NCBI GenBank assembly: GCA_964016885.1 | Contig: OZ024743.1 | Span: 197,470,001-197,534,000, forward strand | Length of the DNA stretch: 64,000 nucleotides | Direction of reading: 5' to 3' | From: Eledone cirrhosa | Taxonomy: Eukaryota | Shown: piece by piece, positions 1,270 to 62,359 of the stretch | Layout of the letters: each line of letters opens with the position of its first letter | Numbering within the stretch: the first letter of the stretch is position 1 | Notes under the pieces: model-generated | The model's database searches: none | What the model was told of the DNA's origin: nothing | The model's input: the letters and a program-made list of their open reading frames with translations, nothing else | Position numbers and translations under genes: made by a program

Positions 1270-1522
1270 CTATATATCTATACATATATCTATATATATA
1301 CATATACATATATATATATCTATACATATATCTATATATCTATATATATATATTTATCTATATCTATATCTATATATATATATAATTTTATATATATATA
1401 TAAATGCACATATATATATATATATATATAACGGAGGAAATGTGGTAAAGAACCAGGTGGACCATAACGCACCAAAGTACTCAATACTTAGGGTCGTAGA
1501 GTGGGTAATAGGAACGAGTAAG

Positions 1523-1618
1523 ACCCCGACGGCTGAGCTCAAGCCGTTTCGACGGCTAATTCTGGACTAAATGAACATTTTTATCCTGGTATTTGAATAG
1601 CCGAGCTTCTCAAGGGGT
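1523..1618 (-). ncRNA. Type I hammerhead ribozyme, U3-A8 core variant (PLE left arm)
   Basis: Minus strand ACCCC-UUGAGAA-G..CGGCUA..UAGCCG.C-GAA-ACGGCU(UGAGCUC)AGCCGU-C-GGGGU; all three stems pair; GUC cleavage triplet. Confidence 0.8.
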
Positions 1619-2699: not shown

Positions 2700-4105
2700 C
2701 CATAGAGAGTTACTATGCTTCAATCACCTTACCGCTATTTACAGCTGCCTTGGACTTCGCCGAAGCACTTTTGCCCATCACCGACCAGGAAAGAAACATC
2801 ATCCTCCACGCCAGGAAGACAGTGTTACTCTTCGACAACTCCAAATGGATAAAGAGAGCTCCCGACTCACCCTTCGACGTCAGCATGGGCGCGACGGATT
2901 CGGCTGAGGTCACAGATCTTATAGGATTATTCCTAATAGCCAAACTCACTGATATGTTTCCTGCATTCGGCGGTGTATTGTACCGTGATGATGGGCTCCT
3001 TACCCTTAAAGGGTACAACCCCAGTAGTACAGATCGTGTCAGTAAACAATTAATCAGCTTCTTCCGCGACTGGGGATTTAAAATAACCCTACAAACGTCC
3101 CTGACCCGAGTAAACTTCCTGGACGTTACCCTTGACCTCGATAATGGTCTGTACTACCCATACAGGAAACCTAACGACAACCTGCACTACATCCACCGCC
3201 GGTCAAACTATTCCTAGGAACATCACCAATAACCTGGTTAAAAACATCTCCCTCCGCATATCCCGTTTGTCAGCTAATGAGCAGATATTCGAGGAACATA
3301 CGCCTTATTACAACCAGGCCCTCAAGCGGAGTGGTTTCCGGGAGGAAATATCCTACTGTCCAGCTTCCATTAGCGGAACCAGCAGACGACACCGCCGCTC
3401 ACGCAATGTAACATGGTTCAATCCTCCCACAACGCCGAGGTGACAACTCCTATCGGGAAAATCTTCTTTAGGCTCATTGAAAAACACTTCCCACTACAAC
3501 ACCGCTACCACAACATAATTAACAAAAATACCATCAAACTCTCTTACAGCACCACACCAAACTTTGCACAAAACATCGTCTCCTCTAACAACAAAAAACT
3601 CAACCCCTATGGAAGAAATAACCTAAATAGCAGTGGAGAGCCGACCAGGAGGTGCAACTGTCCTGATGGATCCATTTGCCCCCTCGACAACAGATGCAGA
3701 GATCGTAATGTGATCTACCAGTGCAACGTGAGGACGGACACCTCCAACAAAGCTTATATAGGATTAACCGCATGTGACTTCAAGACCCGGCTATACCAAC
3801 ACAGACATACCTTCCGAAACCCGGCCCGGCGTCACGCCACTACACTTTCGGGCCACATATGGGACCTCAAGGATAACAACATTACCTATGATCTCACTTG
3901 GAGCTTACTGTCCAGAGCCAACTCTTACACGGGAGGGCGCCGTCCGTGAAATTTATGCTCGGAGGAAACTTTACAAATGCTGTTTTCGACGGACCAACTC
4001 CTAAACAAGAAAGATGAACTGGTTACTGCATGTAAACACAGATTGCGTAGGACTTACCTCGCCCTCAAACCCCATAATGACCCGGGGGGTAGACTAGGGC
4101 TATAA
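2700..4105 (+). pseudogene. PLE reverse transcriptase plus GIY-YIG endonuclease, 5'-truncated, two frameshifts (~3210, ~3430), in-frame TGA at 3947-3949
   Basis: RT motifs IESYYASI, MGATDSAEVTDLIG, YRDDG, FLDVTLDL, YRKP; linker WFNPP and CNC..CPL..C; endonuclease VIYQC..KAYIGLT..FKTRLYQH; frame continues past the TGA as NLCSEE..LLNKKDEL to TAA 4103-4105. Confidence 0.92.
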
Positions 4106-5191
4106 CACCCCACTTGCCGATTTTGTAATGGGTAACCCCTGCTTGCAAAGGTAGACGTAAGATCCTCTTTTATATCTTTTTATCGCTTCCTCTATATTTC
4201 CTTCTTCCCCCTATCCCTCCCTAGTCCTTCCACCCCAGTTCTCTTTCTTTGTCGTCGTCTTTTTCTCGCCCACCCGAGGCAGCCCCTCGGTCCTTTGTAG
4301 CCTCAGTACCCCCACCCCTTCCCCTATTCTATGATAGATTTGGCCGACTCCGCTTTTTATAGCAGATGTATTAGACCCCGGATACTTGCCCTCTTATCCG
4401 ACCGCTGCCCCTTTTCCGTGCTTTCAATATTTCTTAGTGGTATCTTTGCTTTAATTTCTCGTATATCAGTATTTTTTTTTGGGGGGGGGGATTCTGATTT
4501 AATTTTCCGTATCATATTTTACATATACTTCGTACGAGCTTTGATGTAGCTTGCACTAGAACTTTTGTATCGTGGCGGCACCCTTAGAGATAGTATTAGT
4601 ATTTTTTTTCGGGACTCTGAATTATTATTTCGTATTAGTTTACTTTTTGGCACTGGGTGGTTGCTGGCCTTGTGCCTGGGGTAGAAACCTTTATTTATTA
4701 TTTCGTGGTAGTTTCTTGAGTATTTTGGCCCCTCACTTGTTGACCCGTCACCGTAAGATATACTCGGTTTATTACTTATACCTCTTAAAAGCGTCTCATT
4801 ATAATTCCGTCCCACCTAGTATACCTTTCTTTAGCCTAGCAGTACCAGTGAGAGACTTAGGTCGTAGTAACCAGAAATTGTTTATTTTTTTTTTACATTT
4901 AATTGCTTTTTAACACTCTCGGTATTTTTCTATATATTTACCCCATATTGTTCTACTTATTGTTTCGACCTCCTCCCCTCCCTCTCCCTAGTATCTTCTT
5001 TGACCTCATGCCCAGCCGTAGTCGGCACTATCAACGCATGAATGGGTGTCCTCCACCCCCTCTCCCTCTTTCTCCTACTGGCAGGTTCAGCTACCCCTTC
5101 CCTCCACAAATTGCCATCATAGAATTATTATGTCTCAACAACAAACTTTTGACCAATCCTTGTGACAACCACATTTACCATATATGGAATT

Positions 5192-5287
5192 ACCCCTTGA
5201 GAAGCTCGGCTATTCAAATACCAGGATAAAAATGTTCATTTAGTCCAGAATTAGCCGTCGAAACGGCTTGAGCTCAGCCGTCGTGGT
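5192..5287 (+). ncRNA. Type I hammerhead ribozyme, U3-A8 variant (PLE right arm; stem I mismatch)
   Basis: Same motif as 1523-1618 but the 3' strand of stem I reads GUGGU. Confidence 0.7.
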
Positions 5288-5585
5288 CTTACTCGTTCCT
5301 ATATATATATATATATATCAACTAGAAATTGATTGACATATATATATATATATATAAAATAAAAACATGAAACAATCACAGGCGATAATTTGTAAAATAT
5401 GTAAGCACACACAGCTAGGTAGGATCTATTCATTGGAATCTTTGAGCTTATTCTACGGTGGATATGGCGCATGTCACTGACATGACTCCCCTAATTTAAT
5501 TTTGGATATATATATATATTTAAAAACAGGAAAAGAATGACTTCACTTGCAGTTATAAACAAATTGATTTAATTTTATAATATTA

Positions 5586-7631: not shown

Positions 7632-8185
<554 letters not shown>

Positions 8186-13013: not shown

Positions 13014-16000
13014 TTGGGTCATGATTGGCCATGTGTCTTGCACACGTTAGTGACTAACAGGCTATGGGCTTACTTGGGTCATGATTGGACATGTGTCTTG
13101 CACACGTTACTGACTAACTGGATAGGGGCATATTTGGGTCATGATTGGCCATGTGTCTTGCACACGTTACTGACTAACTGGATATGGGCATATTTGGGTC
13201 ATGATTGGCCATGTGTCTTGCACACGTTACTGACTAACTGGATATGGGCATATTTGGGTCATGATTTGCCATGTGTCTTGCACACGTTACTGACTAACTG
13301 GATATGGGTTTATTTGGGTCATGGTTGGACATGTGTCTTGCACACGTTACTGACTAACTGGATATGGGCATATTTGGGTCATGGTTAGACATGTGTCTTG
13401 CACACGTTACTGACTAACTGGATATGGGTTTATTTGGGTCATGGTTGGACATGTGTCTTGCACACGTTACTGACTAACTGGATATGGGCTTATTTGGGTC
13501 ATGAGTGGCCATGTGTCTTGCACACGTTACTGACTAACTGGATATGGGCTTATTTGGGTCACGATTGGCCATGAGTCTTGCACACGTTACTGACTAACTG
13601 GATATGGGCTTATTTGGGTCATGGTTGGACATGAGTCTTGCACACGTTACTCACTAACTGGGTATGGGCTTATTTGGGTCATGATTGGCCATGTGTTTGT
13701 ACACGTTACTGACTAACTGGATAGGGGCATATTTGTGTCATGGTTGGTCATGAGTCTTGCACACGTTACTGACTAACTGGATATGGGCTTATTTGGGTCA
13801 TGATTGGCCATGTGTCTTGCACACGTTACTGACTAACTGGATATGGGCTTATTTGGGTCATGATTGGCCATGTGTCTTGCACACGTTACTGACTAACTGG
13901 ATATGGGCATATTTGGGACATGATTGGCCATGTGTCTTGCACACGTTACTGACTAACTGGATATGGGTTTATTTGGGTCATGATTGGCCATGTGTCTTGC
14001 ACACGTTATTGACTAACTGGATATGGGCATATTTGGGTCATGGTTAGACATGTGTCTTGCACACGTTACTGACTAACTGGATATGGGCTTATTTGGGTCA
14101 TGGTTGGACATGTGTCTTGCACACGTTACTGACTAACTGGATATGGGCATATTTGGGTCATGATTGGCCATGTGTCTTGCACACGTTACTGACTAACTGG
14201 ATATGGGCTTATTTGGGTCATGGTTGGACATGAGTCTTGCACACGTTACTGACTAAATGGATATGGGCTTATTTGGGTCATGATTGGTCATGTGTCTTGC
14301 ACACGTTACTGACTAACTGGATATGGGTTTATTTGGGTCATGGTTGGACATGAGTCTTGCACACGTTACTGACTAACTGGAGATGGACTTATTTGGGTCA
14401 TGGTTGGACATGAGTCTTGCACACGTTACTGACTAACTGGATATGGGCTTATTTGGGTCATGATTGGCCTTGTGTCTTGCACACGTTACTGACTAACTGG
14501 ATATGGGCTTATTTGGATCATGGTTGTTGGACATGAGTCTTGCACACGTTACTGACTAACTGGATATGGGCTTATTTGGGTCACGATTGGCCATGTGTCT
14601 TGCACACGTTACTGACTAACTGGATATGGGCTTATTTGGGTAATGGTTGGACATGAGTCTTGCACACATTATTGACTAACTGGATATGGGCTTATTTGGG
14701 TCATGATTGGCCATGTGTCTTGCACACGTTACTGACTAACTGGATATGGGCTTATTTGGGTCACGATTGGCCATGTGTCTTGCACACGTTACTGACTAAC
14801 TGGATATGGGCTTATTTGGGTCATGGTTGGACATGAGTCTTGTACACGTTACTGACTAACTGGGTATGGGCTTATTTGGGTCATGATTGGCCATGTGTCT
14901 TGTACACATTACTGACTAACTGGATAGGGGCATATTTGGGTCATGATTGGCCATGTGTCTTGCACACGTTACTGATTAACTGGATATGGGCTTATTTGTG
15001 TCATGGTAGGACATGAGTCTTGCACACGTTATTGACTAACTGGATATGGGCTTATTTGGGTCATGATTGGCCATGTGTCTTGCACACGTTACTGACTAAC
15101 TGGATATGGGCTTATTTGGGTCATGATTGGCCATGTGTCTTGCACACTTTACTGACTAACTGGATATGGGCTTATTTGGGTCACGATTGGCCATGTGTCT
15201 TGCACACGTTACTGACTAACTGGATATGGGCTTATTTGGGTCATGGTTGGACATGAGTCTTGCACACGTTACTGAGTAACTGGGTATGGGCTTATTTGGG
15301 TCATGATTGGTCATGTGTCTTGTACACGTTACTGACTAACTGGATAGGGGCATATTTGGGTCATGATTGGCCATGTGTCTTGCACACGTTACTGACTAAC
15401 TGGATATGGGCATATTTGGGTCATGATTGGCCATGTGTCTTGCACACGTTACTGACTAACTGGATATGGGCTTATTTGGGTCATGGTTGGACATGAGTCT
15501 TGCACATGTTACTGACTAACTGGATATGGGCTTATTTGGGTCATGATTGGTCATGTGTCTTGCACACGTTACTGACTAACTGGATATGGGTTTATTTGGG
15601 TCATGGTTGGACATGAGTCTTGCACACGTTACTGACTAACTGGAGATGGACTTATTTGGGTCATGGTTGGACATGAGTCTTGCACACGTTACTGACTAAC
15701 TGGATATGGGCTTATTTGGGTCATGATTGGCCTTGTGTCTTGCACACGTTACTGACTAACTGGATATGGGCTTATTTGGGTCATGGTTGTTGGACATGAG
15801 TCTTGCACACGTTACTGACTAACTGGATATGGGCTTATTTGGGTCACGATTGGCCATGTGTCTTGCACACGTTACTGACTAACTGGATATGGGCTTATTT
15901 GGCTCATGGTTGGACATGAGTCTTGCACACATTACTGACTAACTGGATATGGGCTTATTTGGGTCATGATTGGCCATGTGTCTTGCACACGTTACTGACT

Positions 16001-19000
16001 AACTGGATATGGGCTTATTTGGGTCACGATTGGCCATGTGTCTTGCACACGTTACTGACTAACTGGATATGGGCATATTTGGGTCATGATTGACCTTGCG
16101 TCTTGCACACGTTACTGACTAACTGGATATGGGCTTATTTGGGTCATGATTGGCAATGTGTATTGCACACGTTACTGACTAACTGGATATGGGCATATTT
16201 GGGTCATGATTGGCCATGTGTCTTGTACACGTTACTGACTAACTGGATATGGGCTTATTTGGGTCATGATTGGCCATGTGTCTTGCACACGTTCCTGACT
16301 AACTGGATATGGGCATATTTGGGTCATGATTGGCCATGTGTCTTGTACACGTTACTGACTAACTGGATATTGGCTTATTTGGGTCATGATTGGCCATGTG
16401 TACTGTACACGTTACTGACTAACTGGCTATGGGCTTATTTGGGTCATGATTGGCCATGTGTCTTGCACACGTTACTGACTAACTGGATATGGGCATATTT
16501 GGGTCATGATTGGCCATGTGTCTTGCACACGTTACTGACTAATTGGCTATGGGCATATTTGGGTCATGATTGGCCATGTGTCTTGCACACGTTACTGACT
16601 AACTGGATATGGGCATATTTGGGTCATGATTGGCCATGTGTCTTGCACACGTTACTGACTAACAGGCTATGGGATTATTTGGGTCATGATTGGCCTTGTG
16701 TCTTGCACACGTTACTAACTGGATATGGGCATATTTGGGTCATGATTGGCCATGTGTCTTGCACTCGTTAGTGACTAACTGGATATGGCTTATTTGGGTC
16801 ATGATTGGCCATGTGTCTTGCACACGTTACTGACTAACAGGCTATGGGCATATTTGTGTGATGATTGGCCATGTGTCTTGCACACGTTACTGACTGGATA
16901 TTAGCATATTTGGGTCATGATTGGCCATGTGTCTTGCACACGTTAGTGACTAACTGGATATGGCTTTTTTGGGTCATGATTGGCCATGTGTCTTGCACAG
17001 GTTACTGCCTAACAGGCTATGGGCATATTTGTGTCATGATTGGCCATGTGTCTTGCACACGTTACTGACTGGATATGGGCATATTTGGGTCATGATTGGC
17101 CATGTGTCTTGCACACGTTAGTGACTAACTTGATATGGCTTATTTGGGTCATGATTGGCCATGTGTCTTGCACACGTTACTGACTAACAGGCTATGGGCA
17201 TATTTGGGTCATGATTGGCCTTGTGTCTTGCACACGTTACTGACTAACAGGCTATGGGCATATTTGGGTCATGATTGTCCATGTGTCTTGCACACGTTAC
17301 TGACTAACTGGATATGGGCTTATTTGGGTCATGATTGGTCATGTGTCTTGCACACGTTACTGACTAACTGGATATGGGCTTATTTGGGTCATGGTTGGAC
17401 ATGAGTCTTGCACACGTTACTGAGTAACTGGGTATGGGCTTATTTGGGTCATGATTGGTCATGTGTCTTGTACACGTTACTGACTAACTGGATAGGGGCA
17501 TATTTGGGTCATGATTGGCCATGTGTCTTGCACACGTTACTGACTAACTGGATATGGGCATATTTGGGTCATGATTGGCCATGTGTCTTGCACACGTTAC
17601 TGACTAACTGGATATGGGCTTATTTGGGTCATGGTTGGACATGAGTCTTGCACATGTTACTGACTAACTGGATATGGGCTTATTTGGGTCATGATTGGTC
17701 ATGTGTCTTGCACACGTTACTGACTAACTGGATATGGGTTTATTTGGGTCATGGTTGGACATGAGTCTTGCACACGTTACTGACTAACTGGAGATGGACT
17801 TATTTGGGTCATGGTTGGACATGAGTCTTGCACACGTTACTGACTAACTGGATATGGGCTTATTTGGGTCATGATTGGCCTTGTGTCTTGCACACGTTAC
17901 TGACTAACTGGATATGGGCTTATTTGGGTCATGGTTGTTGGACATGAGTCTTGCACACGTTACTGACTAACTGGATATGGGCTTATTTGGGTCACGATTG
18001 GCCATGTGTCTTGCACACGTTACTGACTAACTGGATATGGGCTTATTTGGCTCATGGTTGGACATGAGTCTTGCACACATTACTGACTAACTGGATATGG
18101 GCTTATTTGGGTCATGATTGGCCATGTGTCTTGCACACGTTACTGACTAACTGGATATGGGCTTATTTGGGTCACGATTGGCCATGTGTCTTGCACACGT
18201 TACTGACTAACTGGATATGGGCATATTTGGGTCATGATTGACCTTGCGTCTTGCACACGTTACTGACTAACTGGATATGGGCTTATTTGGGTCATGATTG
18301 GCAATGTGTATTGCACACGTTACTGACTAACTGGATATGGGCATATTTGGGTCATGATTGGCCATGTGTCTTGTACACGTTACTGACTAACTGGATATGG
18401 GCTTATTTGGGTCATGATTGGCCATGTGTCTTGCACACGTTCCTGACTAACTGGATATGGGCATATTTGGGTCATGATTGGCCATGTGTCTTGTACACGT
18501 TACTGACTAACTGGATATTGGCTTATTTGGGTCATGATTGGCCATGTGTACTGTACACGTTACTGACTAACTGGCTATGGGCTTATTTGGGTCATGATTG
18601 GCCATGTGTCTTGCACACGTTACTGACTAACTGGATATGGGCATATTTGGGTCATGATTGGCCATGTGTCTTGCACACGTTACTGACTAATTGGCTATGG
18701 GCATATTTGGGTCATGATTGGCCATGTGTCTTGCACACGTTACTGACTAACTGGATATGGGCATATTTGGGTCATGATTGGCCATGTGTCTTGCACACGT
18801 TACTGACTAACAGGCTATGGGATTATTTGGGTCATGATTGGCCTTGTGTCTTGCACACGTTACTAACTGGATATGGGCATATTTGGGTCATGATTGGCCA
18901 TGTGTCTTGCACTCGTTAGTGACTAACTGGATATGGCTTATTTGGGTCATGATTGGCCATGTGTCTTGCACACGTTACTGACTAACAGGCTATGGGCATA

Positions 19001-21265
19001 TTTGTGTGATGATTGGCCATGTGTCTTGCACACGTTACTGACTGGATATTAGCATATTTGGGTCATGATTGGCCATGTGTCTTGCACACGTTAGTGACTA
19101 ACTGGATATGGCTTTTTTGGGTCATGATTGGCCATGTGTCTTGCACAGGTTACTGCCTAACAGGCTATGGGCATATTTGTGTCATGATTGGCCATGTGTC
19201 TTGCACACGTTACTGACTGGATATGGGCATATTTGGGTCATGATTGGCCATGTGTCTTGCACACGTTAGTGACTAACTTGATATGGCTTATTTGGGTCAT
19301 GATTGGCCATGTGTCTTGCACACGTTACTGACTAACAGGCTATGGGCATATTTGGGTCATGATTGGCCTTGTGTCTTGCACACGTTACTGACTAACAGGC
19401 TATGGGCATATTTGGGTCATGATTGTCCATGTGTCTTGCACACGTTACTGACTAACTGGATATGGGCTTATTTGGGTCATGATTGGTCATGTGTCTTGCA
19501 CACGTTACTGACTAACTGGATATGGGCATATTTGGGTCATGATTGTCCTTGTGTCTTGCACACGTTACTGACTAACTGGCTATGGGCATATTTGGGTCAT
19601 GATTGGCCTTGTGTCTTACACACGTTACTGACTACCTGGATATGGGCTTATTTGGGTCATGATTGGCAATGTGTCTTCCACACGTTACTGACTAACTGGA
19701 TATGGGCTTATTTGGGTCATGATTGGCCATGTGTCTTGCACACGTTACTGACTAACTGGATATAGGCATATTTGGGTCATGATTGGCCTTGTGTCTTGCA
19801 CACGTTACTGACTAACTGGATATGGGCTTATTTGGGTCATGATTGGCCATGTGTCTTGCACACGTTACTGACTAACTGGATATGGGCATATTTGGGTCAT
19901 GATTGGCCATGTGTCTTGCACACGTTACTGACTAACTGGCTATGGGCATATTTGGGTCATGATTGGCCATGTGTCTTGCACACGTTACTGACTAACAGGC
20001 TATGGGATTATTTGGGTCATGATTGGCCTTGTGTCTTGCACACGTTACTGCCTAACAGGCTATGGGCATATTTGTGTCATGATTGGCCATGTGTCTTGCA
20101 CACGTTACTGACTGGATATGGGCTTATTTGGGTCATGATTGGCCATGTGTCTTGCACACGTTACTGCCTAACAGGCTATGGGCATATTTGGGTCATGATT
20201 GGCCTTGTGTCTTGCACACGTTACTGACTAACAGGCTATGGGCATATTTGGGTCATGATTGTCCATGTGTCTTGCACACGTTACTGACTAACTGGATATG
20301 GGCTTATTTGGGTCATGATTGGCCATGTGTCTTGCACACGTTACTGACTAACTGGATATGGGCATATTTGGGTCATGATTGTCCTTGTGTCTTGCACACG
20401 TTACTGACTAACTGGCTATGGGCATATTTGGGTCATGATTGGCCTTGTTTCTTACACACGTTACTGACTACCTGGATATGGGCTTATTTGGGTCATGATT
20501 GGCAATGTGTCTTGCACACGTTACTGACTAACTGGATATGGGCTTATTTGGGTCATGATTGGCCATGTGTCTTGCACACGTTACTGACTAACTGGATATA
20601 GGCATATTTGGGTCATGATTGGCCATGTGTCTTGCACACGTTACTGACTAACTGGATATGGGCTTATTTGGGTCATGATTGGCCATGTGTCTTGCACACG
20701 TTACTGACTAACTGGATATGGGCATATTTGGGTCATGATTGGCGATGTGTCTTGCACACGTTACTACCGAACTGGATATGGGCATATTTGGGTCATGATT
20801 GGCCATGTATCTTGCACACGTTACTGACTAACTGGATATGGGCTTATTTGGGTCATGATTGACCATGTGTCTTGCACACGTTACTGCCTAACTGGATATG
20901 GGCATATTTGGGTCATGATTGGCCATGTGTCTTGCACACGTTACTGACTAACTGGATATGGGCATATTTGGGTCATGATTGGCGATGTGTCTTGCACACG
21001 TTACTAACTAACTGGCTATAGGCATATTTGGGTCATGATTGGCCATGTGTCTTGCACACGTTACTGACTAACTGGATATGGGCTTATTTGGGTCATGATT
21101 GGCCATGTGTCTTGCACACATTACTAACTGGCTATGGCTTACTTGGGTCATGATTGGCCATGTGTCTTGCACACGTTACTGAATTACTGGATATGGGTTT
21201 ATTTGGGTCATGATTGGCCATGTGTCTTGCACACATTACTGAATAACTGGATATGGGCTTACTTT
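13014..21265. repeat. 60-bp tandem satellite, ~137 copies, with higher-order duplications
   Basis: Unit tttgggtcatgattggccatgtgtcttgcacacgttactgactaactggatatgggc(a/t)ta; identical ORF pairs offset by 2148 bp (15260/17408, 16103/18251, 16865/19013). Confidence 0.98.
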
Positions 21266-29800: not shown

Positions 29801-30141
29801 AGCGGCGATGAATTAGTTTTGCGAGGTTTTTTAGATGAAATCGTGTGTCGAAACAGATATTGTTATATTTGGGGAGGGTTATATTTGCGTAATATTGCCA
29901 GAATTAATAACAGAACACACTCACTGTTTGGTTGGTTTTCGCTTCTCGCTGTCTTTTATATATATATATCTGCGATCTAACTTACTCGGTCCTCAATGGC
30001 AACATTGAGGACCGAGTAAGTTAGATCGCAGATATATATATATATAAAAGACAGCGAGAAGCGAAAACCAACCAAACAGTGAGTGTGTTCTGTTATTAAT
30101 TCTGGCAATATTACGCAAATATGACCCTCCCCAAATATAAC
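29801..30141. mobile_element. ~280-bp near-perfect palindrome (29862-30141) plus tail, in (TA)n
   Basis: Arms meet at caatg-gcaa-cattg (29994-30007). Confidence 0.8.
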
Positions 30142-30403: not shown

Positions 30404-30594
30404 AAAAAGTATGACCCCGACGGCAGCGCTGAAGCTCTTTCGACGGCTATTTCTGGACAGAAATAGCCGTCGAATCGGCTTGAGCTCTGCCGTCGGGGGT
30501 CATACTTTTTCCTATTACCCACTCTACTACCCTAAGTATTGAGTACTCTGGTGCGTTATGGTCCATCTGGTTCCTTACCACATTTCCTTCGTTA
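30401..30594 (+). mobile_element. Mini fold-back copy of the 3' end of the 1430-5302 PLE family
   Basis: Palindrome 30401-30513 centred in HHR stem II; tail matches the reverse complement of 1430-1510. Confidence 0.85.
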
Positions 30595-33204: not shown

Positions 33205-33397
33205 GTTATTCCGGGTTGAATCGGAGGTAACCACAGTAAGTAAGGTACTCAATACATTGCAGAGTATAAAAGTTTTAATATAGATGAGATTCTACAGGAC
33301 TAGAACTGTTTCATTCTTTAGAAATCATCAGGAACCTGATGATTTCTAAAGAATGAAACAGTTCTAGTCCTGTAGAATCTCATCTATATTAAAACTT
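33205..33397 (-). mobile_element. Fold-back remnant with an intact hammerhead (33288-33336, minus)
   Basis: GGUUC-CUGAUGA-UUUC(UAAA)GAAU-GAA-ACAG..CUGU-A-GAAUC. Confidence 0.85.
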
Positions 33398-33438
33398 ATA
33401 TATATATATATATATATAATATATGCATAAATAAAACT

Positions 33439-33988: not shown

Positions 33989-34044
33989 ACTGCTATATAT
34001 ATTTCGATGATAACCATTGAATGGCTATGACTTCATCAGGCAGT
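33989..34044 (-). ncRNA. Minimal type I hammerhead ribozyme
   Basis: ACUGC-CUGAUGA-AGUCAUAGCCAU..AUGGUUAUCAUC-GAA-AUAUAUAU-A-GCAGU; A/C mismatch at the base of stem II. Confidence 0.75.
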
Positions 34045-34180
34045 TAGTCAGTTCTTAGATATGCCAGCTCTGTGTTTATAGTGTTGATGGTATCATATTG
34101 TATATATCGATTTTGTTGTTATTTCTGTTTACCTTTTACGTATATATATATATATATATATAAGTATGCGTATTTTATAT

Positions 34181-36354: not shown

Positions 36355-37252
36355 CTATCTTAGTCGGCAAAATAGGAAAAGTGTTACAGCCGTGGTCCAC
36401 CCACCCGGGACGTGAAGGGGTTTGAAGGTAAGGTATGTCCTACGCACTCTGTGTTTACATGCGGTAACAAGTTCATCTTTTTTATTTAAGAGTTGGTCCT
36501 TAGCAAACAGCATTTGGATCGTTTCCTCCGAGCATAAATTACACGGACGGCGACCTCCCGAGTAAGAATTTGCCTTGGAAAGTATGCTCCAACTTAGATG
36601 GTAGGTGATGTTATTGTCTTGGAGGTCCCAAATATGGTCCGAAAGTGCTGTTGCGTGTCGCCGGGCCGGGTTTCTAAATGTATGTCGGTGTTGGTAATAC
36701 AGGGTCTTAAAATCGCAGGCGGTTAATCCGATGTAGGCCTTGTTAGAATTTTCCATCCTTACATTGCACTGGTAGACCACGTTACATTCTCGGCATCTGT
36801 TGTTGAGGGGGCACGATGATATATCCGGACAGTTACACCTCCTAGTTTGATCTCCACTAATATCATTGTTGTTTCTTCTGTTAGAGAGGAGTTTTTTGTT
36901 GTTTGTGCAAAGTTGGGTGTACTGCTGTAGGAAAGTTTGACAGTGTTTCTGTTGACGATATTGTGGTAGCGGTGTTGTGGTGGGAAGTGTTTGTCGAGGA
37001 GTCCAAAAAAGATCTTCCCAATTGGTGTTGCAACCTCGGCATTGTGGGGGAGGGTTGAACCACGTTACGTGGCGTGTACGGCGGCTTCGCCTGCTGGATC
37101 CGCTAGAAGGGCTTGGATAATATGAGATGTCCTCCTGGAAGCCGCTGCTCTTGAGGGACTGGTTGTAATATGAACCGTGTTCGTTTAAAATCTGCTCGTT
37201 TTCAGACAGGCGAGATATGCAGAGGGAGATATTTTAAACTAAGTTGTTGGTA
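36355..37252 (-). pseudogene. Second PLE fragment (linker plus GIY-YIG), diverged relative of 2700-4105
   Basis: VYQCNV..KAYIGLTACDFKT..QHRHTFRNP..RRPCNLCSEETIQM..LLNKKDELVTACKH. Confidence 0.9.
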
Positions 37253-37743: not shown

Positions 37744-37829
37744 CGTAGGCATATATATAAATGTGTATATATACGTTATGAATATGTATCTATGCATATA
37801 CAAACACAAACATACACATATATATATAA

Positions 37830-38165
37830 ATACATATTTGTGTGTGTGTGTGCTTGTTCCTGTACTTGTGTGGTTCGGTGTAAATCACATCGTTTGTAAA
37901 ATTGCCATTTTTGCTAGTACACTGCTACAAATATATATGTATATGCCCGTGGGCAGGAATAAAGCTGTATAGTTCACAGCGATTAGAAACGATAAACATA
38001 ATAGTGAAATTCATGTTCTAGGATAATCAAGTTTAAATAGATTATCTAATTAAAATTTAGTACTAAATAATACAGTCGCAGCTGTAGAGAAATGTAATTT
38101 AATATAGCTTGTACTAATATCATAAATCTTATACCACTTTTAATATTTCACTCCCGTATAACCCT
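37830..38165 (+). repeat. Unclassified interspersed repeat (copies at 42950-43340 minus and 45995-46690 plus; distal part also at 42055-42290)
   Basis: tgcttgttcctgtacttgtgtggttcg..ctagtacactgctacaaat..cagtcgcagctgtagagaaatg shared. Confidence 0.8.
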
Positions 38166-38380
38166 TTTCATTTCTCACTCTTAGTAAGTATGCATACTTA
38201 TATTTAAGTAGCAGCCGTACTAAGAGTGAGAAATGAAATTTCGTTTCACTTTTTCCGTTTATCGTTTTCGGTACCCGGGCCGATTAACTCACTCGATATG
38301 CAAATTAGGCTGCTCAGCCGTTAATATGCATAAGGAAAGTATATACTTTCAGACGTTCAACCATCTGGCAGGAAGGTATG

Positions 38381-38421
38381 CGTTGCTGACGATAGCTAAT
38401 AAGCTTGAAACTAGTACAGCG
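38381..38421 (+). ncRNA. Minimal type I hammerhead ribozyme
   Basis: CGUUG-CUGACGA-UAGC(UAAUAA)GCUU-GAA-ACUAGU-A-CAGCG. Confidence 0.88.
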
Positions 38422-38811
38422 TTCCTTTGTCAGTGTTGAATAAATGAGCAACGATGGTTGCTAGACACTGTACGGCTTAATTCGGGTTGTTTGTTTACAA
38501 ACACACCGAGCATTATAATAAATGTTCGGTGAATCCATACGTACATGTATATATGTGTGCATGTATGTATATATATATATACATACTACTGTACGTCTGT
38601 ATACATATATGTATGTAGGTATACATACTTATATTTAAGTAACAGCCGTACTAAGAGTGAGAAATGAAATTTCGTTTCATTTTTTCCGTTTATCGTTTTC
38701 GGTACCCCGGCCGATTAACTCACTCGATATGCAAATTAGGCTGCTCAGCCGTTAATATGCATAAGGAAAGTATATACTTTCAGACGTTCAACCATCTGGC
38801 AGGAAGGTATG

Positions 38812-38852
38812 CGTTGCTGACGATAGCTAATAAGCTTGAAACTAGTACAGCG
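38812..38852 (+). ncRNA. Minimal type I hammerhead ribozyme (second copy)
   Basis: Identical to 38381-38421. Confidence 0.88.
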
Positions 38853-39899
38853 TTCCTTTGTCCGTGTTGAATAAATGAGCAACGATGGTTGCTAGACACT
38901 GTACGGCTTAATTCGGGTTGTTTGTTTACAAACACACCGAGCATTATAATAAATGTTCGGTGAATCCATACGTACATGTATATACGTGTGCATGTATGTA
39001 TATATATATATACATACTACTGTACGTCTGTATACATATATGTATGTAGGTATACATACTTATATTTAAGTAACAGCCGTACTAAGAGTGAGAAATGAAA
39101 TTTCGTTTCATTTTTTCCGTTTATCGTTTTCGGTACCCCGGCCGATTAACTCACTCGATATGCAAATTAGGCTGCTCAGCCGTTAATATGCATGAAGAAA
39201 GTATATACTTTCAGATATCCTGGTTGAAGAATAATTATACATATGTATAAATTTTATCTGTAACATATTATTTTATTTTATTTTTACCTTATATATACCT
39301 ATATACATAATAGTTATTCAAATATTTATAACAATAAGTACTTCAAAAGTTTTACATACATAATATGTTGGGATATTTGTTAACGTTTAGATTTGGGTAA
39401 TTAATCAACAGTATAATATTTCATTCTTTACGTGCCAGCTAAATCCTTTAAAATATTTTTCTCACAATTCAGAAGTTTAGAAATGATAACACACTTATCG
39501 AATTTATATAAATAATATATAATTAAATAGCAAATAATCCTGAAATCTGGAGTCTTCACATTAATATTATAAATTAAATATTTCCAAATTCTAACAGTTT
39601 AATTTTCGACCCCCCCCCCACACTTTATCTTTCCCTCCTTATAAATCTTTTTCCAGTGGCTATCACTGGCTGTTATGACTCATGAGACGTTTCCCTAGAT
39701 ATTATTGTATCATACAATTTAAAATTTTAGAACACTTTAAGTATGCAACGTTTTTTCTTACTCACACATTCTCTAATGAATTCATTACGTTTTCGCACTC
39801 TCACAAAGATATTATATAAGCAAAATTTTCTATCGAGTAATCACTACCTTGATTAAATCTTAACCATTTAACATCTCAGGGTATGTCATGTATCATTAT

Positions 39900-39952
39900 A
39901 TTTTGTCTGATGAGGACGTACTGTTGTACATCCGAAATATGTATAATAAAAT
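39900..39952 (+). ncRNA. Minimal type I hammerhead ribozyme in a short repeat (~39843-39998)
   Basis: AUUUUGU-CUGAUGA-GGACGUAC(UGUU)GUACAUCC-GAA-AUAUGUAU-A-AUAAAAU; family also at 54.8 and 55.1 kb. Confidence 0.85.
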
Positions 39953-39992
39953 GTAATTGATCAAAAGAACATCCATTTAATTAATACTTATA

Positions 39993-40023
<31 letters not shown>

Positions 40024-40565
40024 TTAGGGCGGGTAAAATTCCCGAGATCCATGGACGAGGTCTCTCCAGCGGTCTCTGTCCCTCATTATCGCTGCCATGT
40101 CCTGCGCCTCCAACAGACCAATGTCTGTCCTTAGAGCATCAACATATGTTAACCTTGGTCTTCCTCTTCCAATGTGTCCATGTAGGGGCTCCCACAGGAG
40201 CACTGAGTGCAATGTCAACTCTGGATGCCGGTGAGCATGTCCAGCTAACCCCAGTCTCCTCTGTGTCACTTTTTTAGCTGACTTTGGGAGGCACCCATAC
40301 AGCTCTGAGTTTTTCATCCTCAGTGTATACTGATTAATGTTCAGAGCCATCCTCAGCATTCTTGTGTAGCACACATCCACCATCTGAGTTAGTTTCTTGG
40401 TCAGTGTCCAAGTCTCAGACCCGTACAGCAGCACAGACTCCACTACAGCAATGAAGAGGCGGATTTTCAGGTCTTTACGAAGGTCCGACATCCACACCGA
40501 TCTCAAGCTGTGGCAGGCCGCCCAGGCCTTGCCCTTCCTCTCAACCACTTCATCTTCCGTAATCC
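40024..40565 (-). mobile_element. RTE-like LINE 3' fragment
   Basis: RKGKAWAA..KIRLF..VESVLLYGSETWTLT..YTRMLR..LAGH..GRGRPRLTYVD. Confidence 0.88.
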
Positions 40566-40740
40566 CAATATATATATATATATATGATTAAATTTGACTC
40601 AGAGGTAGGCGAGCAATGTGGCAGTATGCTACTACGTCCATCTTTGGTGAAAAGCATAGCAGATACTTTTCTGTTTTGTTTTTCTTTGCTTGTTTCCTTA
40701 AAGCTTACCATTATTCCGTAGATATACATCTATTGTGCAA

Positions 40741-40914: not shown

Positions 40915-41111
40915 GTAGAACACTGGAAGGTAATATCCGTAGTGGTAGAGCACTCAGTCCATGGGACGAGTTAGGTAGAAGTGGTTACACAACAGTTAGT
41001 TCACCATACCGAGAACAATTGTTTCACCTTAGCGGATCCTCAGCTGAGGATCCGCTAAGGTGAAACAATTGTTCTCGATATGGTGAACTAACTGTTGTGT
41101 AACCACTTCTA
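40911..41111. mobile_element. 136-bp palindrome (40976-41111) plus tail, in (TA)n; hammerhead core starts at the centre
   Basis: Centre cag|ctg at 41043/41044, then CUGAGGA-UCC(GCUAA)GGU-GAA-ACA..UGU-A. Confidence 0.8.
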
Positions 41112-44032: not shown

Positions 44033-44061
<29 letters not shown>

Positions 44062-44063
<2 letters not shown>

Positions 44064-44703
44064 ATAAATATTTCGTATCTCCAAAGAAATACGGTTTTAG
44101 GAAGCCGTAGTTATGCAAACACAGGGAGGGGGGGCTAACGCCCTCTGGTGATGTCCAGCAGAAGCAAGAGGTACAAGCGTCTATGCATTTCAGGCTTAAC
44201 TGGCCATCGTCAGGACGGACCCTCCCACCGCTTGCAACTGCTGGACTTGAAGACAGGCGAGAATATATAGTTTTCTCATCTGTGTAAATGAGGTGATTAA
44301 TCTCATTTGCATATGAAGCTGCATAAGTTGGCTCAACTTATAATAGAAAAGAAATAGGATTTCGCTTCAAGTATAGCTTAATTATAAGTTGAGTCAACTT
44401 ATGCAGCTTCATATGCAAATGAGATTAATCACCTCATTTACACAGACGAGAACACTATATATTCTCGCCTGTCTTCTAGTCCAGCAGTTGCAAGTGGTGG
44501 GAGGGAGCGTCCAGACGATGGCCAGTTAAGCCTGAAATGCATAGACGGTTGGCCCCCTTGCGTCTGCTGGACTTCGCTAGAGGGCGTTAGCCCCTTGGTG
44601 TTTGTATAGCTACGGCTTCCTAAAACCGTATTTCTTTGGAGATACGAAATATTTATACATATTGTATAAAGCTATGCTTGAAGCGAAATCCTATTTCTTT
44701 TCT
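44062..44703. mobile_element. Head-to-head pair of a ~323-nt hammerhead unit in two circular permutations
   Basis: Arms 44062-44344 and 44381-44658; spacer 44345-44380 is the reverse complement of tail 44669-44703. Confidence 0.85.
44178..44217 (-). ncRNA. Minimal type I hammerhead ribozyme (mutated twin at 44508-44547, plus)
   Basis: CGUC-CUGACGA-UGGC(CAGUUAA)GCCU-GAA-AUGCAU-A-GACG. Confidence 0.88.
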
Positions 44704-45913: not shown

Positions 45914-45996
<83 letters not shown>

Positions 45997-46713
45997 AATA
46001 TTTGTGTGTGTGTGTGTGCTTGTTCCTGTACTTGTGTGGTTCGATGTAAATCACATCGTTTGTAAAAATTGCCATTTTTGCTAGTACACTGCTACAAATA
46101 TATATGTATATGCCCGTGGGCAGGAATAAAGCTGTATAGTTCACAGCGATATATGTATATGCCCGTGGCAGAAATAAAGCTGTATAGTTCACAGCGATTA
46201 GAAACTATAAACATAATAGTGAAATTCATGTTCTAGGATAATCAAGTTTAAATAGATTGTATAATTAAAATTTAGTACTAAATAATACAGTCGCAGCTGT
46301 AGAGAAATGTAATTTAATATAGCTTGTACTAATATCATAAATCTTATACCACTTCGAATATTTCACTCCCTATAACCCTTTTGATACCAAACCACCCGAA
46401 AAAGCCTCTATCTTTACAATTCAAAACTATTTTCAAGAAAGATATAACAAGAATTTCAATTGATTTTGAAATTTTATATTGAATATATTTAATTTGGTTC
46501 TTAATATATTTCGGCGAAAACGACCTTACTGAACGAGTTAAAGGAATGCAGAGAGATGTTGATGGTGGTTCCGAAGATACTCTGAATTATGAGGAGTTAG
46601 GAGATAGGTTCCGATAATTCAGTTCAAGGCTTTGATGGTTACTCTAATGTCTTGAATTTTTCCTGGGATTTCTTGAGACAGGTATCAGGTGCGATCCTCC
46701 GTCTTCCTGCTTT

Positions 46714-48711: not shown

Positions 48712-48877
48712 ATGTGGTAAGGAACCAAGTGGACCAGAACGAACCAGAGTACTCGAAACTATGGGTAATAGGAAAAGAGTCAGGTCCCCGAAAGCTGAGC
48801 CCCGGCCGTTTCGACACCTATTTCTGAAATAGCTGTCGAAACGGCCGGAGCTCAGCCGTCGGGGACCTGACTCTTTT

Positions 48878-48881
<4 letters not shown>
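48712..48881 (-). mobile_element. Mini fold-back copy of the PLE 3' end (related subfamily)
   Basis: Palindrome ~48768-48882 containing CGAAACGGCCGGAGCUCAGCCGUC-GGGG; tail on the left. Confidence 0.8.
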
Positions 48882-48934
<53 letters not shown>

Positions 48935-54250: not shown

Positions 54251-54574
54251 AGCATTAAAAAATAAATATTTTAATGAATACCCCCCCCCCCCCCCCCCCC
54301 CCCTCCTACCTTACTTTAAACACAGGAAACTCGGGAGAAGTCAATAGTTGATAACATCTATCTGTAGGTTTCTATTTTGTAGTTGATGCTACGATGTTTA
54401 TACAGATTCAAGAAGAATTACATTGATTTCAGTAAAGAATAATTGTAAAGATGCTTTAAGCATCTCCACATTCTTTAGATATGGAGTGAGAGAACAAACC
54501 AGGACCCCGACAGCTGAGCTCCGGCCGTTTCGACAGCTAGAACCGAACGGTTGTTTATGTATATATATATATTT

Positions 54575-55191
54575 AAGAGTTAAACAAGATTCAATGAATA
54601 CATCAAAGAATGAGTTTTACAATAGATTGGAAGCACTCTACAGATAATATTTTCCAGAGTTATTAATATTAATTCAAAATATTAACAAAATAGATATTCT
54701 TGTGATCAATTATATTTTATTATTGAGAGGTACTGAATTAAGTTCAACAGTACTACCTTGATTAAATCTACCATGTCAGGGTATGTCATGTATCATTTTA
54801 TTTTATCTGATGAGGACGTACTGTTGAACTTAATTCAGTACCTCTGAAATATGTAATATAATTGATCACAAGAATATCTATTTTGTTAATATTTTGAATT
54901 AATATATATATATATATATATATAAAACCAAATGTTAAACAAGGTTCATTGATTATTCAATGAATATAGTTTTACAATAGATTAAAAGCACTCAACAATG
55001 AGTTTTCTGGAGTTATTAATATTATACAAAATATTAATAAATGGAGACATTCACGTAATCAAAATGTTTTATTATATATATTTCGGAGGTACTGTGTTGT
55101 TTTTTCAGTACGTCCTCATCAGATAAAATACATAAATTGATGTATGACATACCTCAACTGAGCTGATGGTTATACATCAATTTATGTATTT

Positions 55192-55195
<4 letters not shown>
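54575..55195. mobile_element. Two adjacent fold-back elements of one hammerhead family; HHR at 54800-54862 (plus) and 55067-55128 (minus)
   Basis: UUUUAU-CUGAUGA-GGACGUACUG..CAGUACCUC(C/U)-GAA-AUAU..U-A-AUA; arms 54666-54753/54818-54905 and 55123-55145/55172-55194. Confidence 0.82.
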
Positions 55196-55223
<28 letters not shown>

Positions 55224-55549
55224 TATATACATGTCACGGGAAAGAATCGATGGAGATATTTTACGGGCAAAACCAACCGGCAAGAGTCCCAGGGGTAAAC
55301 CCTAGCAAGATGGCTGGATAACATCACCAGGTCCGAACGCAGTAGAGCGGAACACCCACGTACCTTAGGGAGGGTTTAGTCTACTGCTGAGATGGAGAAA
55401 TCTACTCACCTCACAATAAAGTCTACTTAAAAATATATCTCCACATTTTCATTATTGTTGTTGTTGATAGTAGTGCTGAATGAGGTAATGATAGTTGTAA
55501 TGTTGTTGTTGTTATTGTTGGTGATGATGGTGGCTGTTGCTGTCTTGTT

Positions 55550-57640
55550 GTGAGTGGTGGTGGTGGCGGTGGTGGTGGTCGCTGGTTTTGAGGATCTTGG
55601 CGATGCTGATGATGGTGGAGTATATAGCGGTGGTAGTGGTGATGGTAGGGGATGTAGTGTTGGTGTTGGTGTTGGTGGTGGTGTTGAGGATCTTGGCGGT
55701 GCTGGTGATGGTGGAGTATGTAGTGGTGGTGGTGGTGGTGTTGAGGATCTTGGCGGTGCAGGTGATGGTGGAGTATGTAGTGGTGGTGGTGGTGGTGAGG
55801 ATCTTGGTAGTGGTGGTGATGGTGGAGGATGTAGTGGTGGTGGTGGTGGTGTTGAGGATCTTGACGGTGCTGGTGATGGTGGAGTATGTAGTGGTGGTGG
55901 TGGTGAGGATCTTGGTAGTGGTGGTGATGGTGGAGGATGTAGCGGTGGTGGTGGTGGTGTTGAGGATCTTGGTGGTGGTGGTGATGGTGGAGGATGTAGT
56001 GGTGGTGGTGGTGGTGTTGAGGATCTTGACGGTGCTGGTGATGGTGGAGTATGTAGTGGTGGTGGTGGTGAGGATCTTGGTAGTGGTGGTGATGGTGGAG
56101 GATGTAGTGGTGGTGGTGGTGGTGTTGAGGATCTTGACGGTGCTGGTGATGGTGGAGTATGTAGTGGTGGTGGTGGTGAGGATCTTGGTAGTGGTGGTGA
56201 TGGTGGAGTATGTAGTGGTGGTGGTGGTGGTGAGGATCTTGGTAGTGGTGGTGATGGTGGAGGATGTAGTGGTGGTGGTGGTGGTGTTGAGGATCTTGAC
56301 GGTGCTGGTGATGGTGGAGTATGTAGTGGTGGTGGTGGTGAGGATCTTGGTAGTGGTGGTGATGGTGGAGGATGTAGCGGTGGTGGTGGTGGTGTTGAGG
56401 ATCTTGGTGGTGGTGGTGATGGTGGAGGATGTAGTGGTGGTGGTGGTGGTGTTGAGGATCTTGACGGTGCTGGTGATGGTGGAGTATGTAGTGGTGGTGG
56501 TGGTGAGGATCTTGGTAGTGGTGGTGATGGTGGAGGATGTAGTGGTGGTGGTGGTGGTGTTGAGGATCTTGACGGTGCTGGTGATGGTGGAGTATGTAGT
56601 GGTGGTGGTGGTGAGGATCTTGGTAGTGGTGGTGATGGTGGAGGATGTAGTAATAGTGGTGGGGATCTTGGTGGTGGTGATGGTGGAGGATTTAGTGATG
56701 GTGGTGGTGGTGTTGAGGATCTTGGTGGTGGTGGTGATTGTGGAGGATGTAGTGGTGGTAGTGATGGTGGAGGAAGTAGTGTTGGTGGTGTTGGTGGAGG
56801 ATGTAGTAGTGGTGGTGGTGATGGTGGAGGATGTAGTGGTGGTGGTGGTGGTGGTGGTGGTGGTGATGGTGGAGGATGTTGTGGTGGTGGTAGTGTTGAT
56901 CTAGGTGGTGGTGGTGATGGGGGAGTATGTAGTGGTGGTGGTGTTGAGGATCGTGGTGGTGATGGTGATGGTGGAGGATGTAGTGTTGGTGGTGGTGGTG
57001 TTGAGGATCTTGGTGGTGGTGGTGATGGTGGAGGATGTAGTAGTGGTGGTGGTGGTGGAGGATGTAGTAGTGGTGGTGGTGGTGAGGATCTTGGTGGCGG
57101 TGGTGGTGGTGGTGGTGGTGGTGGAGGATGTAGTAGTGGTAGTGGTGGTGGTGAGGATCTTGGTGGTGGTGGTGGTGGTGGTGTTGAGGATCTTGGTGGT
57201 GGAGGTGATGGTGGAGGATGTAGTGGTGGTGGTGGTGGTGAGGATTTAGTGGTGGTGGTGGTAATGGTGGTGGTGGTGAGGATCATGGTGGAAGATGTAG
57301 TGGTGGTGGTGCTGGTGGTGGAGGATCTTGGTGGTGGTGGTGGTGTTGAGGATGCTGGTGGTGGTGGTGGTGATGGTGGAGGATGTAGTGGTGGTGAGGA
57401 TTTAGTGGTGGTGGTGGTGGTGGTGGTGAGGATCATGGTGGAGGTTGTAGTGGTGGTGGTGGTGGTGGTGGAGGATCTTGTTGTTGTTGGTGGTGGTGGT
57501 GAGGATCTTGGTCGTGGTGGTTGTGGTGGTGTTGAGGATCTTGGTGGTAGTGGTGATGGTGGAGGATGTAGTAGTGGTGGTGGTGGTAGTGGTGGTGATG
57601 GTGGTGAAGATCTTGGTGGTGCTGGTGATGGTGAAGGTGT
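55550..57640. repeat. GGT-based compound minisatellite (~54-57-bp units containing gaggatctt)
   Basis: Read directly; gives stop-free Gly-rich (+) and Pro-rich (-) frames. Confidence 0.93.
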
Positions 57641-57905
57641 TGGTAGAGTTTAAAAATGTTTACGTATGTTTTGCTATAGAAAAGATACTATCACCGCCAA
57701 CTGGAGTTGAACAATCTTGTGTGAAAGGTTTTCTTTATTCCAAAAATCTTATTAAAGTTGGCAGAACACTAGGGAACAAACATTTCCATTGGGCATATAT
57801 ATATATAACCAATTATTTAAGTAAATCTTACAAATCTTAAACATGTAAAGGTTGCTCAGTACGTGTATGTTGATAATTCTGGCTATTACTAAGTATGTTA
57901 ATTAA

Positions 57906-61149: not shown

Positions 61150-62359
61150 ACATTTCATTTTATTTTTTGAATTCTATTCAGCACTTGTCGGGCCATTTCA
61201 TTTTATTTTTTTGAATTCTATTCAGCACTTGTCGGGCCATTTCATTTTATTTTTTGAATTCTATTCAGCACTTGTCGGCCCATTTCATTTTATTTTTTGA
61301 ATTCTTTTCAGCACTTGTCGGCCCATTTCATTTTATTTTTTGAATTCTATTCAGCACTTGTCGGCCCATTTCATTTTATTTTTTGAATTCTATTCAGCAC
61401 TTGTCGGCCCATTTCATTTTATTTTTTGAATTCTATTCAGCACTTGTCGGCCCATTTCATTTTATTTTTTGAATTCTATTCAGCACTTGTCGGCCCATTT
61501 CATTTTATTTTTTGAATTCTTTTCAGCACTTGTCGGCCCATTTCATTTTATTTTTGGAATTCTATTCAGCACTTGTCGGCCCATTTCATTTTATTTTTGG
61601 AATTCTATTCAGCACTTGTCGGCCCATTTCATTTTATTTTTGGAATTCTATTCAGCACTTGTCGGCCCATTTCATTTTATTTTTGGAATTCTATTCAGCA
61701 CTTGTCGGCCCATTTCATTTTATTTTTTGAATTCTATTCAGCACTTGTCGGCCCATTTCATTTTATTTTTGGAATTCTATTCAGCACTTGTCGGCCCATT
61801 TCATTTTATTTTTTGAATTCTATTCAGCACTTGTCGGCCCATTTCATTTTATTTTTTGAATTCTATTCAGCACTTGTCGGCCCATTTCATTTTATTTTTT
61901 GAATTCTATTCAGCACTTGTCGGCCCATTTCATTTTATTTTTGGAATTCTATTCAGCACTTGTCGGCCCATTTCATTTTATTTTTTTAATTGTATTCAGC
62001 ACTTGTCGGCCCATTTCATTTTATTTTTGGAATTCTATTCAGCACTTGTCGGCCCATTTCATTTTATTTTTTTAATTGTATTCAGCACTTGTCGGCCCAT
62101 TTCATTTTATTTTTTTAATTGTATTCAGCACTTGTCGGCCCATTTCATTTTATTTTTTGAATTCTATTCAGCACTTGTCGGCCCATTTCATTTTATTTTT
62201 TGAATTCTTTTCAGCACTTGTCGGCCCATTTCATTTTATTTTTTGAATTCTATTCAGCACTTGTCGGCCCATTTCATTTTATTTTTGGAATTCTATTCAG
62301 CACTTGTCGGCCCATTTCATTTTATTTTTTGAATTCTATTCAGCACTTGTCGGCCCATT
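61150..62359. repeat. 43-bp tandem satellite, ~28 copies
   Basis: Unit gaattctattcagcacttgtcggcccatttcattttatttttt. Confidence 0.97.

Follow-up and report, generated by a model that had tools for sequence, protein, structure and literature searches.

A tandem array of 431-nt hammerhead units with a Penelope-type inverted edge, a likely animal non-LTR retrozyme

The tandem array at 38193-39215 of the 64-kb stretch of DNA analyzed here (the window) is likely, judging from its sequence features, an animal non-LTR retrozyme, that is, a nonautonomous Penelope-like element (PLE) of a kind already described across animals. We consider it probable that the array represents one insertion of such a retrozyme, a parasite of PLEs, whose circle was copied more than two times by the PLE machinery. 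TRF reported a period of 431, 2.4 copies, and 98% matches over 38184-39215, and the forward array proper covers 38193-39215, or 2.37 units of 431 nt. Unit 1 (38193-38623, plus strand; 431 nt, noncoding, ∼37% GC) directly adjoins unit 2 (38624-39054, plus strand; delimited by TRF and unit alignment), which is followed by a partial unit 3 (39055-39215, plus strand; 161 nt) that stops 32 nt ahead of its hammerhead core and carries neither a hammerhead nor a target-site duplication. The units are contiguous, with no LTR-internal-LTR layout and no element body between consecutive copies. No reading frame was found between or beside them, and the longest stop-free frame of the noncoding array has 78 codons. 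Seven differences over 592 comparable positions separate the units, so the copies are distinct and do not result from an assembly duplication. Units 1 and 2 agree with each other and differ from most of the family at three positions (38380, 38441, and 38487), which points to one template for both. The predicted cuts delimit a strongly self-paired monomer RNA of 431 nt (38417-38847, plus strand); this monomer and the 2.4 head-to-tail copies are as given in a preliminary description of the locus. The unit also contains an AT/GT-repeat hairpin (38533-38630, plus strand), from which all the microRNA matches of Rfam over the array arise; they were below threshold and a microRNA identity was rejected. 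The surrounding window is microsatellite rich and repeat dense, with 30 to 51% GC, and is most likely animal DNA.

We identified a type I hammerhead on the plus strand of each complete unit, at 38380-38422 (motif and Rfam alignment; predicted cut after 38416) and at 38811-38853 (same letters over the span; predicted cut after 38847). Its elements follow each other in the order GCGUUG, CUGACGA, U-AGCU-AAUA-AGCU-U, GAAA, ACUAGU, and an A separated by the cut from CAGCGU. In the first copy, helix I pairs 38380-38385 with 38417-38422, the core occupies 38386-38392, a U-U mismatch (38393/38406) precedes helix II (38394-38397/38402-38405), GAAA lies at 38407-38410, and the palindromic helix III lies at 38410-38415; a distal part of helix I (∼38371-38375/38426-38430) is found past an internal loop. 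The first letters of the two CUGACGA cores are 38386 and 38817; ACUAGU forms helix III, and cleavage is predicted between GUA and CAGCG. A hammerhead descriptor gave 7 matches in the window versus a mean of 0.065 (maximum, 1) over 200 block shuffles, and a strict version matched only the two array copies, with 0 matches in all 200 shuffles. The full Rfam model Hammerhead_HH9 (1-77) aligned to 38368-38439 with a weak score (18 bits, E value of 0.02, gathering score of 52). In this alignment, helix I has 6 bp and loop II has 6 nt, and an internal loop and a distal helix are present. No Rfam family reached its gathering score over the whole 64-kb window.

The passages of PMC4209133 (Cervera and de la Pena 2014) on metazoan ribozymes describe the canonical type I hammerhead as having a helix I of 6 bp, a helix II of 4 bp, and a helix III of 1 to 2 bp with a small palindromic loop. 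The "minimal" hammerhead in that text lacks helix III and loop 3 and has an enlarged helix II (7 to 8 bp in Schistosoma), an extra nucleotide after A9, and a G10.1-C11.1 pair. The array hammerhead differs from the minimal type, with a helix III palindrome, 4 pairs in helix II, U-U at 10.1-11.1, and 6 bp in helix I, so that by its sequence we class it as a canonical type I hammerhead with a short, weak palindromic helix III. The preliminary description had proposed a 41-nt minimal hammerhead in each complete copy, with the palindrome ACUAGU as stem III. The hammerhead and its palindrome are indeed present in both full units; its length is 43 nt once the terminal G-U pair of the 6-bp helix I is counted, and, as the helix III palindrome is present, the label "minimal" does not hold under the definitions excerpted from PMC4209133.

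The monomer folds at -145 kcal/mol (z score of -8.1), with 71% of its nucleotides paired as a circle and a GC content of 36.9%. The unit minus the AT-repeat hairpin had a z score of -6.4, and among 15 control stretches, 2 reached about -4.6 and none went lower. For the stretch containing both hammerheads, a swapped dimer was predicted at -165.9 kcal/mol, compared to -148.8 kcal/mol for two monomer hammerheads; these models, in which the dimer is better by 17 kcal/mol, lend support to the probable dimer action suggested earlier. The swapped dimer would be nested, without pseudoknots, and would contain a 6-bp ACUAGU/ACUAGU helix III. The free fold of the same stretch, at -171.7 kcal/mol, lies 5.8 kcal/mol below the active dimer and is in an inactive register, which in the local two-unit RNA has pair probabilities of 0.90 to 0.97, versus ∼0.02 for the swapped helix I and 0 for the dimer helix III. 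This register is kept by the G38380-C pair, in which G is the rare allele common to both local units (38380/38811). When the rare G is forced to remain unpaired, helix III of the dimer forms in the best fold, and the full dimer is 1.3 kcal/mol away. Since the rare G at 38380/38811 favors the inactive register in these models, the array locus may be a poor cutter. All these values are predictions from nearest-neighbor folding models, which ignore magnesium and core contacts. In the text consulted of Li, Clavereau and Pollet (bioRxiv 10.64898/2026.07.22.740005), one of nine predicted Xenopus retrozyme dimers showed cleavage in vitro.

We then looked into the insertion junctions. At its left edge, the array starts with a head-to-head inverted copy of its own beginning (38166-38192, minus strand; 27 nt), which is the reverse complement of 38193-38200 and 38220-38238 and omits the 19 nt between these two source segments. 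A perfect 16-bp palindrome (38185-38200), centered between 38192 and 38193, marks the inversion junction, and the inverted copy shares a TTT microhomology with the target at 38166-38168. An inverted copy had been noted before, at 38166-38186, and likened to PLE-type integration; its presence is confirmed, its extent is larger (38166-38192, with the palindrome), and the likeness stands, as the sections of PMC3846280 on insertion structure name palindromic, head-to-head inversion junctions among the typical traits of Penelope elements and interpret them as self-priming. Inverted, 5'-truncated adjacent copies are treated as a general PLE trait in the excerpts of PMC8557442. The insertion cuts a dispersed host repeat (37812-38168, plus strand), other copies of which are located at 43365-43008 and 45968-46385; the interrupted repeat ends at 38168, and these two copies run ∼45 nt further, into sequence that is absent to the right of the array. 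No target-site duplication was found at the array junctions, where target sequence is missing instead, and no poly(A) tail was found at the array. The outer ends of the array fall at unlike positions of the unit (38238 versus the equivalent of 38353), consistent with a template whose 3' end is not fixed; in the PLE of the window, by contrast, both ends coincide (1508/5302). An 8-nt inverted match directly right of 39215 is probably due to chance.

The unit belongs to a large, diverse, and very abundant repeat family. Twenty sequencing runs contain the unit or part of it, 3 of them with at least half of its words; none is on record as RNA, and they have no bearing on expression. In the 4 runs mapped of the 23 listed (reference, 38110-38623), 11,018 contigs of run X1 and 66,101 of the 12,467,656 reads of the RAD run X21 (0.53%) fell on one unit. 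Genome copy number had been put forward earlier as a check, and these figures establish a multicopy family, though not an exact count; as a rough inference, the family has thousands of copies, summed depth being no copy number. Runs X4 and X6, which bear other organism labels, gave merely 21 and 9 contigs, which we do not take as presence in other species.

Variation within the family appears to spare the catalytic center. The test used 40 of the 85 variant entries and was designed post hoc, with the entries already seen: none of the corresponding 38 variable places falls in the 24 positions of the core, helix II, and helix III (hypergeometric P of 0.034), nor in those 24 plus the 8 Watson-Crick positions of helix I (P of 0.010). 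The six variants within the ribozyme, among the entries listed, are tolerated or improve pairing. They comprise C>U at N7 and U>C in loop II; G>A at 38380, which is found in nearly all family copies and makes an A-U pair; U>A at 38379, which adds a helix I pair in a subfamily; and U>G at 38383 with G>U at 38419, which, although not phased, likely swap one wobble pair from U-G to G-U. Based on these sequence variants, we suggest that the ribozyme is under selection at the family level.

The inversion recurs in the family, as 11 of the 15 joints listed connect opposite strands (9 in X21, 3 in X1, 1 in both), with the limit that single-start RAD joints in X21 could be library artifacts. Inversion joints also cluster at 38213-38215, where alignments probably stop at a block of subfamily mismatches. 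RAD read ends in X21 sit at AATT sites (38237, 38303/38306, and 38482), and ∼25,000 X21 reads exit the unit into mixed sequence behind 38240-38242, next to 38238, where the inverted copy ends on its outer side. We rejected 38240-38242 as the natural 3' end of the family, which is unproven, an AATT site being located there and religation chimeras explaining the exits. For 6 of the 11 opposite-strand joints listed, one end maps to 38377-38402, the 5'-proximal half of the hammerhead. Three near-perfect palindromes of the window (7666-7802, 33265-33402, and 40976-41111), which represent three other, mutually dissimilar families and have 68-bp arms each, are centered at most 4 nt from the start of a CUGANGA core, with a U-U at the base of helix II and (TA)n on one side; such centering in 3 of 19 palindromes has a P value of about 1e-4. 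These three palindromes are probably by-products of fold-back PLEs that stopped at a ribozyme core. Because 6 of the 11 listed inversion joints lie in the hammerhead 5' half and three palindromes are centered on a core, the folded ribozyme may, on the tentative reading of the junctions given below, be a stall point that triggers the fold-back.

The window harbors a broken PLE (1508-5302) with RT-like and GIY-YIG-like frames at ∼2693-3949 (RT from ∼2693, GIY-YIG at 3374-3949). These frames have Atlas scores of 0.94 to 0.95, in clusters with RVT_1 (42%) and GIY-YIG (40%); Pfam scans of the PLE-like frames and three homologues were blank. The element carries a CxCX5C linker, as described for the Hydra clade, and it has the inverted-copy layout of the array: at its 5' side, its 3' region is repeated in inverted orientation over 1.2 kb (1508-2692 versus 5302-4124; 97.5%). 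Near its outer ends, we saw no more of a hammerhead than the GAAAC...GUC half. A second GIY-YIG-type PLE fragment (36355-37251, minus strand), 78% like 3225-4108, is located 0.9 kb left of the array and is not linked to it. Comparison of the unit with the ends of this PLE and with the EN fragment revealed no detectable homology within the 64-kb window. Short palindromes at 29957-30044, 30415-30498, and 48768-48882 are built from terminal sequence of the same PLE family.

We propose the following pathway for the family. Its arrays would be transcribed, and two hammerheads would pair their ACUAGU palindromes into the 6-bp helix III of the folding models, with the inner helix I closed by the monomer's own ends. 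The paired hammerheads would excise 431-nt monomers, which a host ligase of the RtcB type could close into circles, by analogy with the axolotl and mussel retrozyme monomers that RtcB circularized in vitro in the work excerpted. Rolling reverse transcription of one circular template would yield the 2.37 copies, and a PLE reverse transcriptase/endonuclease would insert the product at the array site, where PLE self-priming (a fold-back at the 5' end) would leave the head-to-head inverted edge, again by analogy. The three shared minority alleles together with the unlike outer ends favor a circular template. On a broader scale, we raise, as a tentative and rather doubtful possibility, that the family junctions record a Penelope enzyme reverse transcribing circular retrozyme RNA, which would account for 2.4 copies, arbitrary ends, and a recurrent fold-back scar; the circle would then be copied across uncut or religated hammerhead sites. 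The lack of detectable homology between the unit and the PLE ends of the window, and the part of PMC3846280 that reports no cross-mobilization between PLE types, count against mobilization of the unit by a PLE.

Three other origins of the array were weighed against this reading. The array might be the tandem pseudo-LTR (pLTR) end of a 5'-truncated autonomous PLE, with a unit that never moves alone as a circle. PLEs are known for inverted edges joined through a palindrome, hammerheads whose helix III is a small palindrome occur in fly, rotifer, and shrimp pLTRs (excerpts of PMC4209133), and retrozymes are often pLTR derived according to the part consulted of bioRxiv 10.64898/2026.07.22.740005. 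We nevertheless find this origin unlikely: neighboring units abut without an intervening element body, no reading frame was found among or alongside them, and the unit resembles neither the PLE of the window nor the EN fragment 0.9 kb away. Moreover, the share of X1 contigs that continue into unlike sequence was 0, and the strongest loose ends among those listed were the unit's own continuation or subfamily variants. That the two units share their minority alleles fits local DNA duplication and rolling reverse transcription equally, and a single inserted unit might have been duplicated in place by satellite-type unequal exchange, with the hammerheads as passengers and no rolling copy. Such an origin would also agree with the local allele that favors the inactive fold and with the local amplification of PLE ends into arrays that Li et al. 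propose in the text excerpted. Sharp, mid-unit array ends, the interruption of another repeat, an inversion scar, and variation that appears to spare the core speak against it, and a circular template would be expected to leave just such a noninteger copy number and unlike ends; we therefore hold local duplication to be quite improbable.

A third origin, to which we assign very little probability, is a retrozyme that owes its insertion to a LINE-type reverse transcriptase, or to capture at a break under repair, rather than to a PLE. The window does contain RT fragments that we take to be LINE-like, for example at 40024-40587 (RTE-like label), their family being assigned from motifs and unconfirmed by Pfam, and the missing target sequence with a 3-nt microhomology would fit repair. 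The array has no poly(A) tail or target duplication, however. LINE twin priming produces nonoverlapping inversions, unlike the fold-back of the array. In the array, sequence downstream of the junction is present a second time in the inverted piece, as in the PLE insertions of the relevant sections of PMC3846280.

The preferred reading, an insertion of a PLE-dependent retrozyme, is in line with what has been reported for metazoan non-LTR retrozymes. Excerpts of PMC7229834 (Cervera and de la Pena 2020) define them as tandem noncoding units of 150 to 450 bp, with characterized circles of 170 to 400 nt and a target-site duplication of >4 bp that is optional ("when present"). Like them, the array consists of tandem, noncoding 431-nt units with one type I hammerhead per unit, a GC content of <50%, a predicted self-paired monomer, many copies, and PLEs in the genome. 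It also agrees with the definition in the available text of Li, Clavereau and Pollet (two consecutive units with a complete type I hammerhead; bioRxiv 10.64898/2026.07.22.740005). The unit is at the upper end of the size range in the excerpts of PMC7229834; its size is nonetheless unremarkable, because non-LTR retrozyme units of 51 to 972 bp are described in the bioRxiv text. Helix III is weak, as in amphibian retrozymes, whereas the typical invertebrate retrozymes in those PMC7229834 excerpts have a 2-bp stem and a tetraloop. The array shares with the axolotl HHR_Amex1 a helix III of one base pair with a palindromic tetraloop and with HHR_Amex2 the U-U mismatch at the base of helix II; these two weak features occur separately in the axolotl, compared here through the descriptions in PMC7229834, and are joined in the one ribozyme of the array. 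HHR_Amex1 and HHR_Amex2, which we group with newt satellite hammerheads, cleave far better as dimers in the same excerpts.

The array has a fold-back edge, and the words "inverted" and "inversion" are absent from the consulted main text of PMC7229834; within the excerpted main texts of PMC7229834 and bioRxiv 10.64898/2026.07.22.740005, no inverted edges on retrozymes are mentioned. Like the insertions of EN+ PLEs in the parts of PMC3846280, PMC8557442, and PMC4209133 that bear on them, the array combines a partial tandem with a neighboring copy that is inverted and 5' truncated, has a palindrome where the inversion is joined, and shows microhomology and no target duplication. Unlike these insertions, it has no RT-EN frame, its outer ends fall at different unit positions, and its hammerhead is not of the minimal type. 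Nonautonomous head-to-tail PLE derivatives, the Chlamys elements, figure in the excerpts of PMC8557442 on Chlamydomonas. Our literature search, a comparison of texts that cannot match sequence, found no description attributable to the array family.

The retrozyme papers, in the parts consulted, deduce PLE mobilization from cooccurrence and from the phylogeny of pLTRs, and they describe its mechanism as still to be resolved. The link to PLEs is drawn in this way by Li et al. in the excerpted text, and in the array it comes from junction anatomy, no pLTR relative having been found within the 64-kb window. On its own the array is one more family, and its value, a modest addition, is mechanistic: this retrozyme and its relatives bear a junction of the PLE type. 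Their copies are numerous enough for a census of junctions, which, if PLEs do copy the circle, would make both the mobilizing element and the PLE inversion route directly testable. The array also provides a natural ribozyme in which a palindromic helix III of one pair and a U-U at the helix II base occur together. With its naturally occurring one-letter variant, which according to the models would switch the fold, it offers a simple test of dimer-dependent cleavage.

We also searched for the same hammerhead architecture in unrelated sequences. The exact 33-nt pattern had 0 matches in metagenome contigs and a relaxed pattern had 0 matches in viral contigs, while a second relaxed pattern yielded 4 metagenome loci (L001 to L004), 3 of them distinct. 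We rejected these loci as family members, their similarity to the unit being confined to the ribozyme. Five sequences were compared for covariation (the unit, L001 to L003, and the window hammerhead at 44213; L004, the same as L002 there, was omitted); they had been picked by the core pattern, with helix I outside the selection. All 6 pairs of helix I show two-sided change, i.e., the letters differ and pairing is kept: pairing amounts to 91.7% of cells versus 68.2% when shuffled, a value reached in 0 of 500 shuffles, and slid registers of helix I give 20 to 38%. The L001 hammerhead (753-783) is like that of the array at 30 of 31 positions from core to cut and has a different helix I. L001 (1-1153) has a 78-nt terminal direct repeat (92%) and is probably a unit of ∼1,075 nt, tandem or circular. 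L003 carries two hammerheads (1226-1645 and 1992-2425), each within a long inverted repeat, a fold-back layout in an unrelated sample.

Several other features were observed in the window. Additional type I hammerheads, in which a short AU palindrome serves as helix III, are present at 39895-39957 (plus strand), 54500-55194, and 33990-34045 (minus strand), and those at 39907, 54807, and 55122 form one family within nested inverted repeats. A 600-bp palindrome (44061-44659; 87%) includes the hammerhead at 44213 (minus strand), with a U-U at the base of helix II and the palindrome AUGCAU. No tRNA genes were found in the window. Minisatellites occupy 13014-21261 (60-nt unit, 138 copies) and 61151-62359 (43-nt unit, 28 copies). 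A 2.2-kb (GGT)n-derived repeat at 55427-57649 contains, on its minus strand, a proline-rich open frame of 740 codons, which could be an extensin- or mucin-like exon or a mere repeat.
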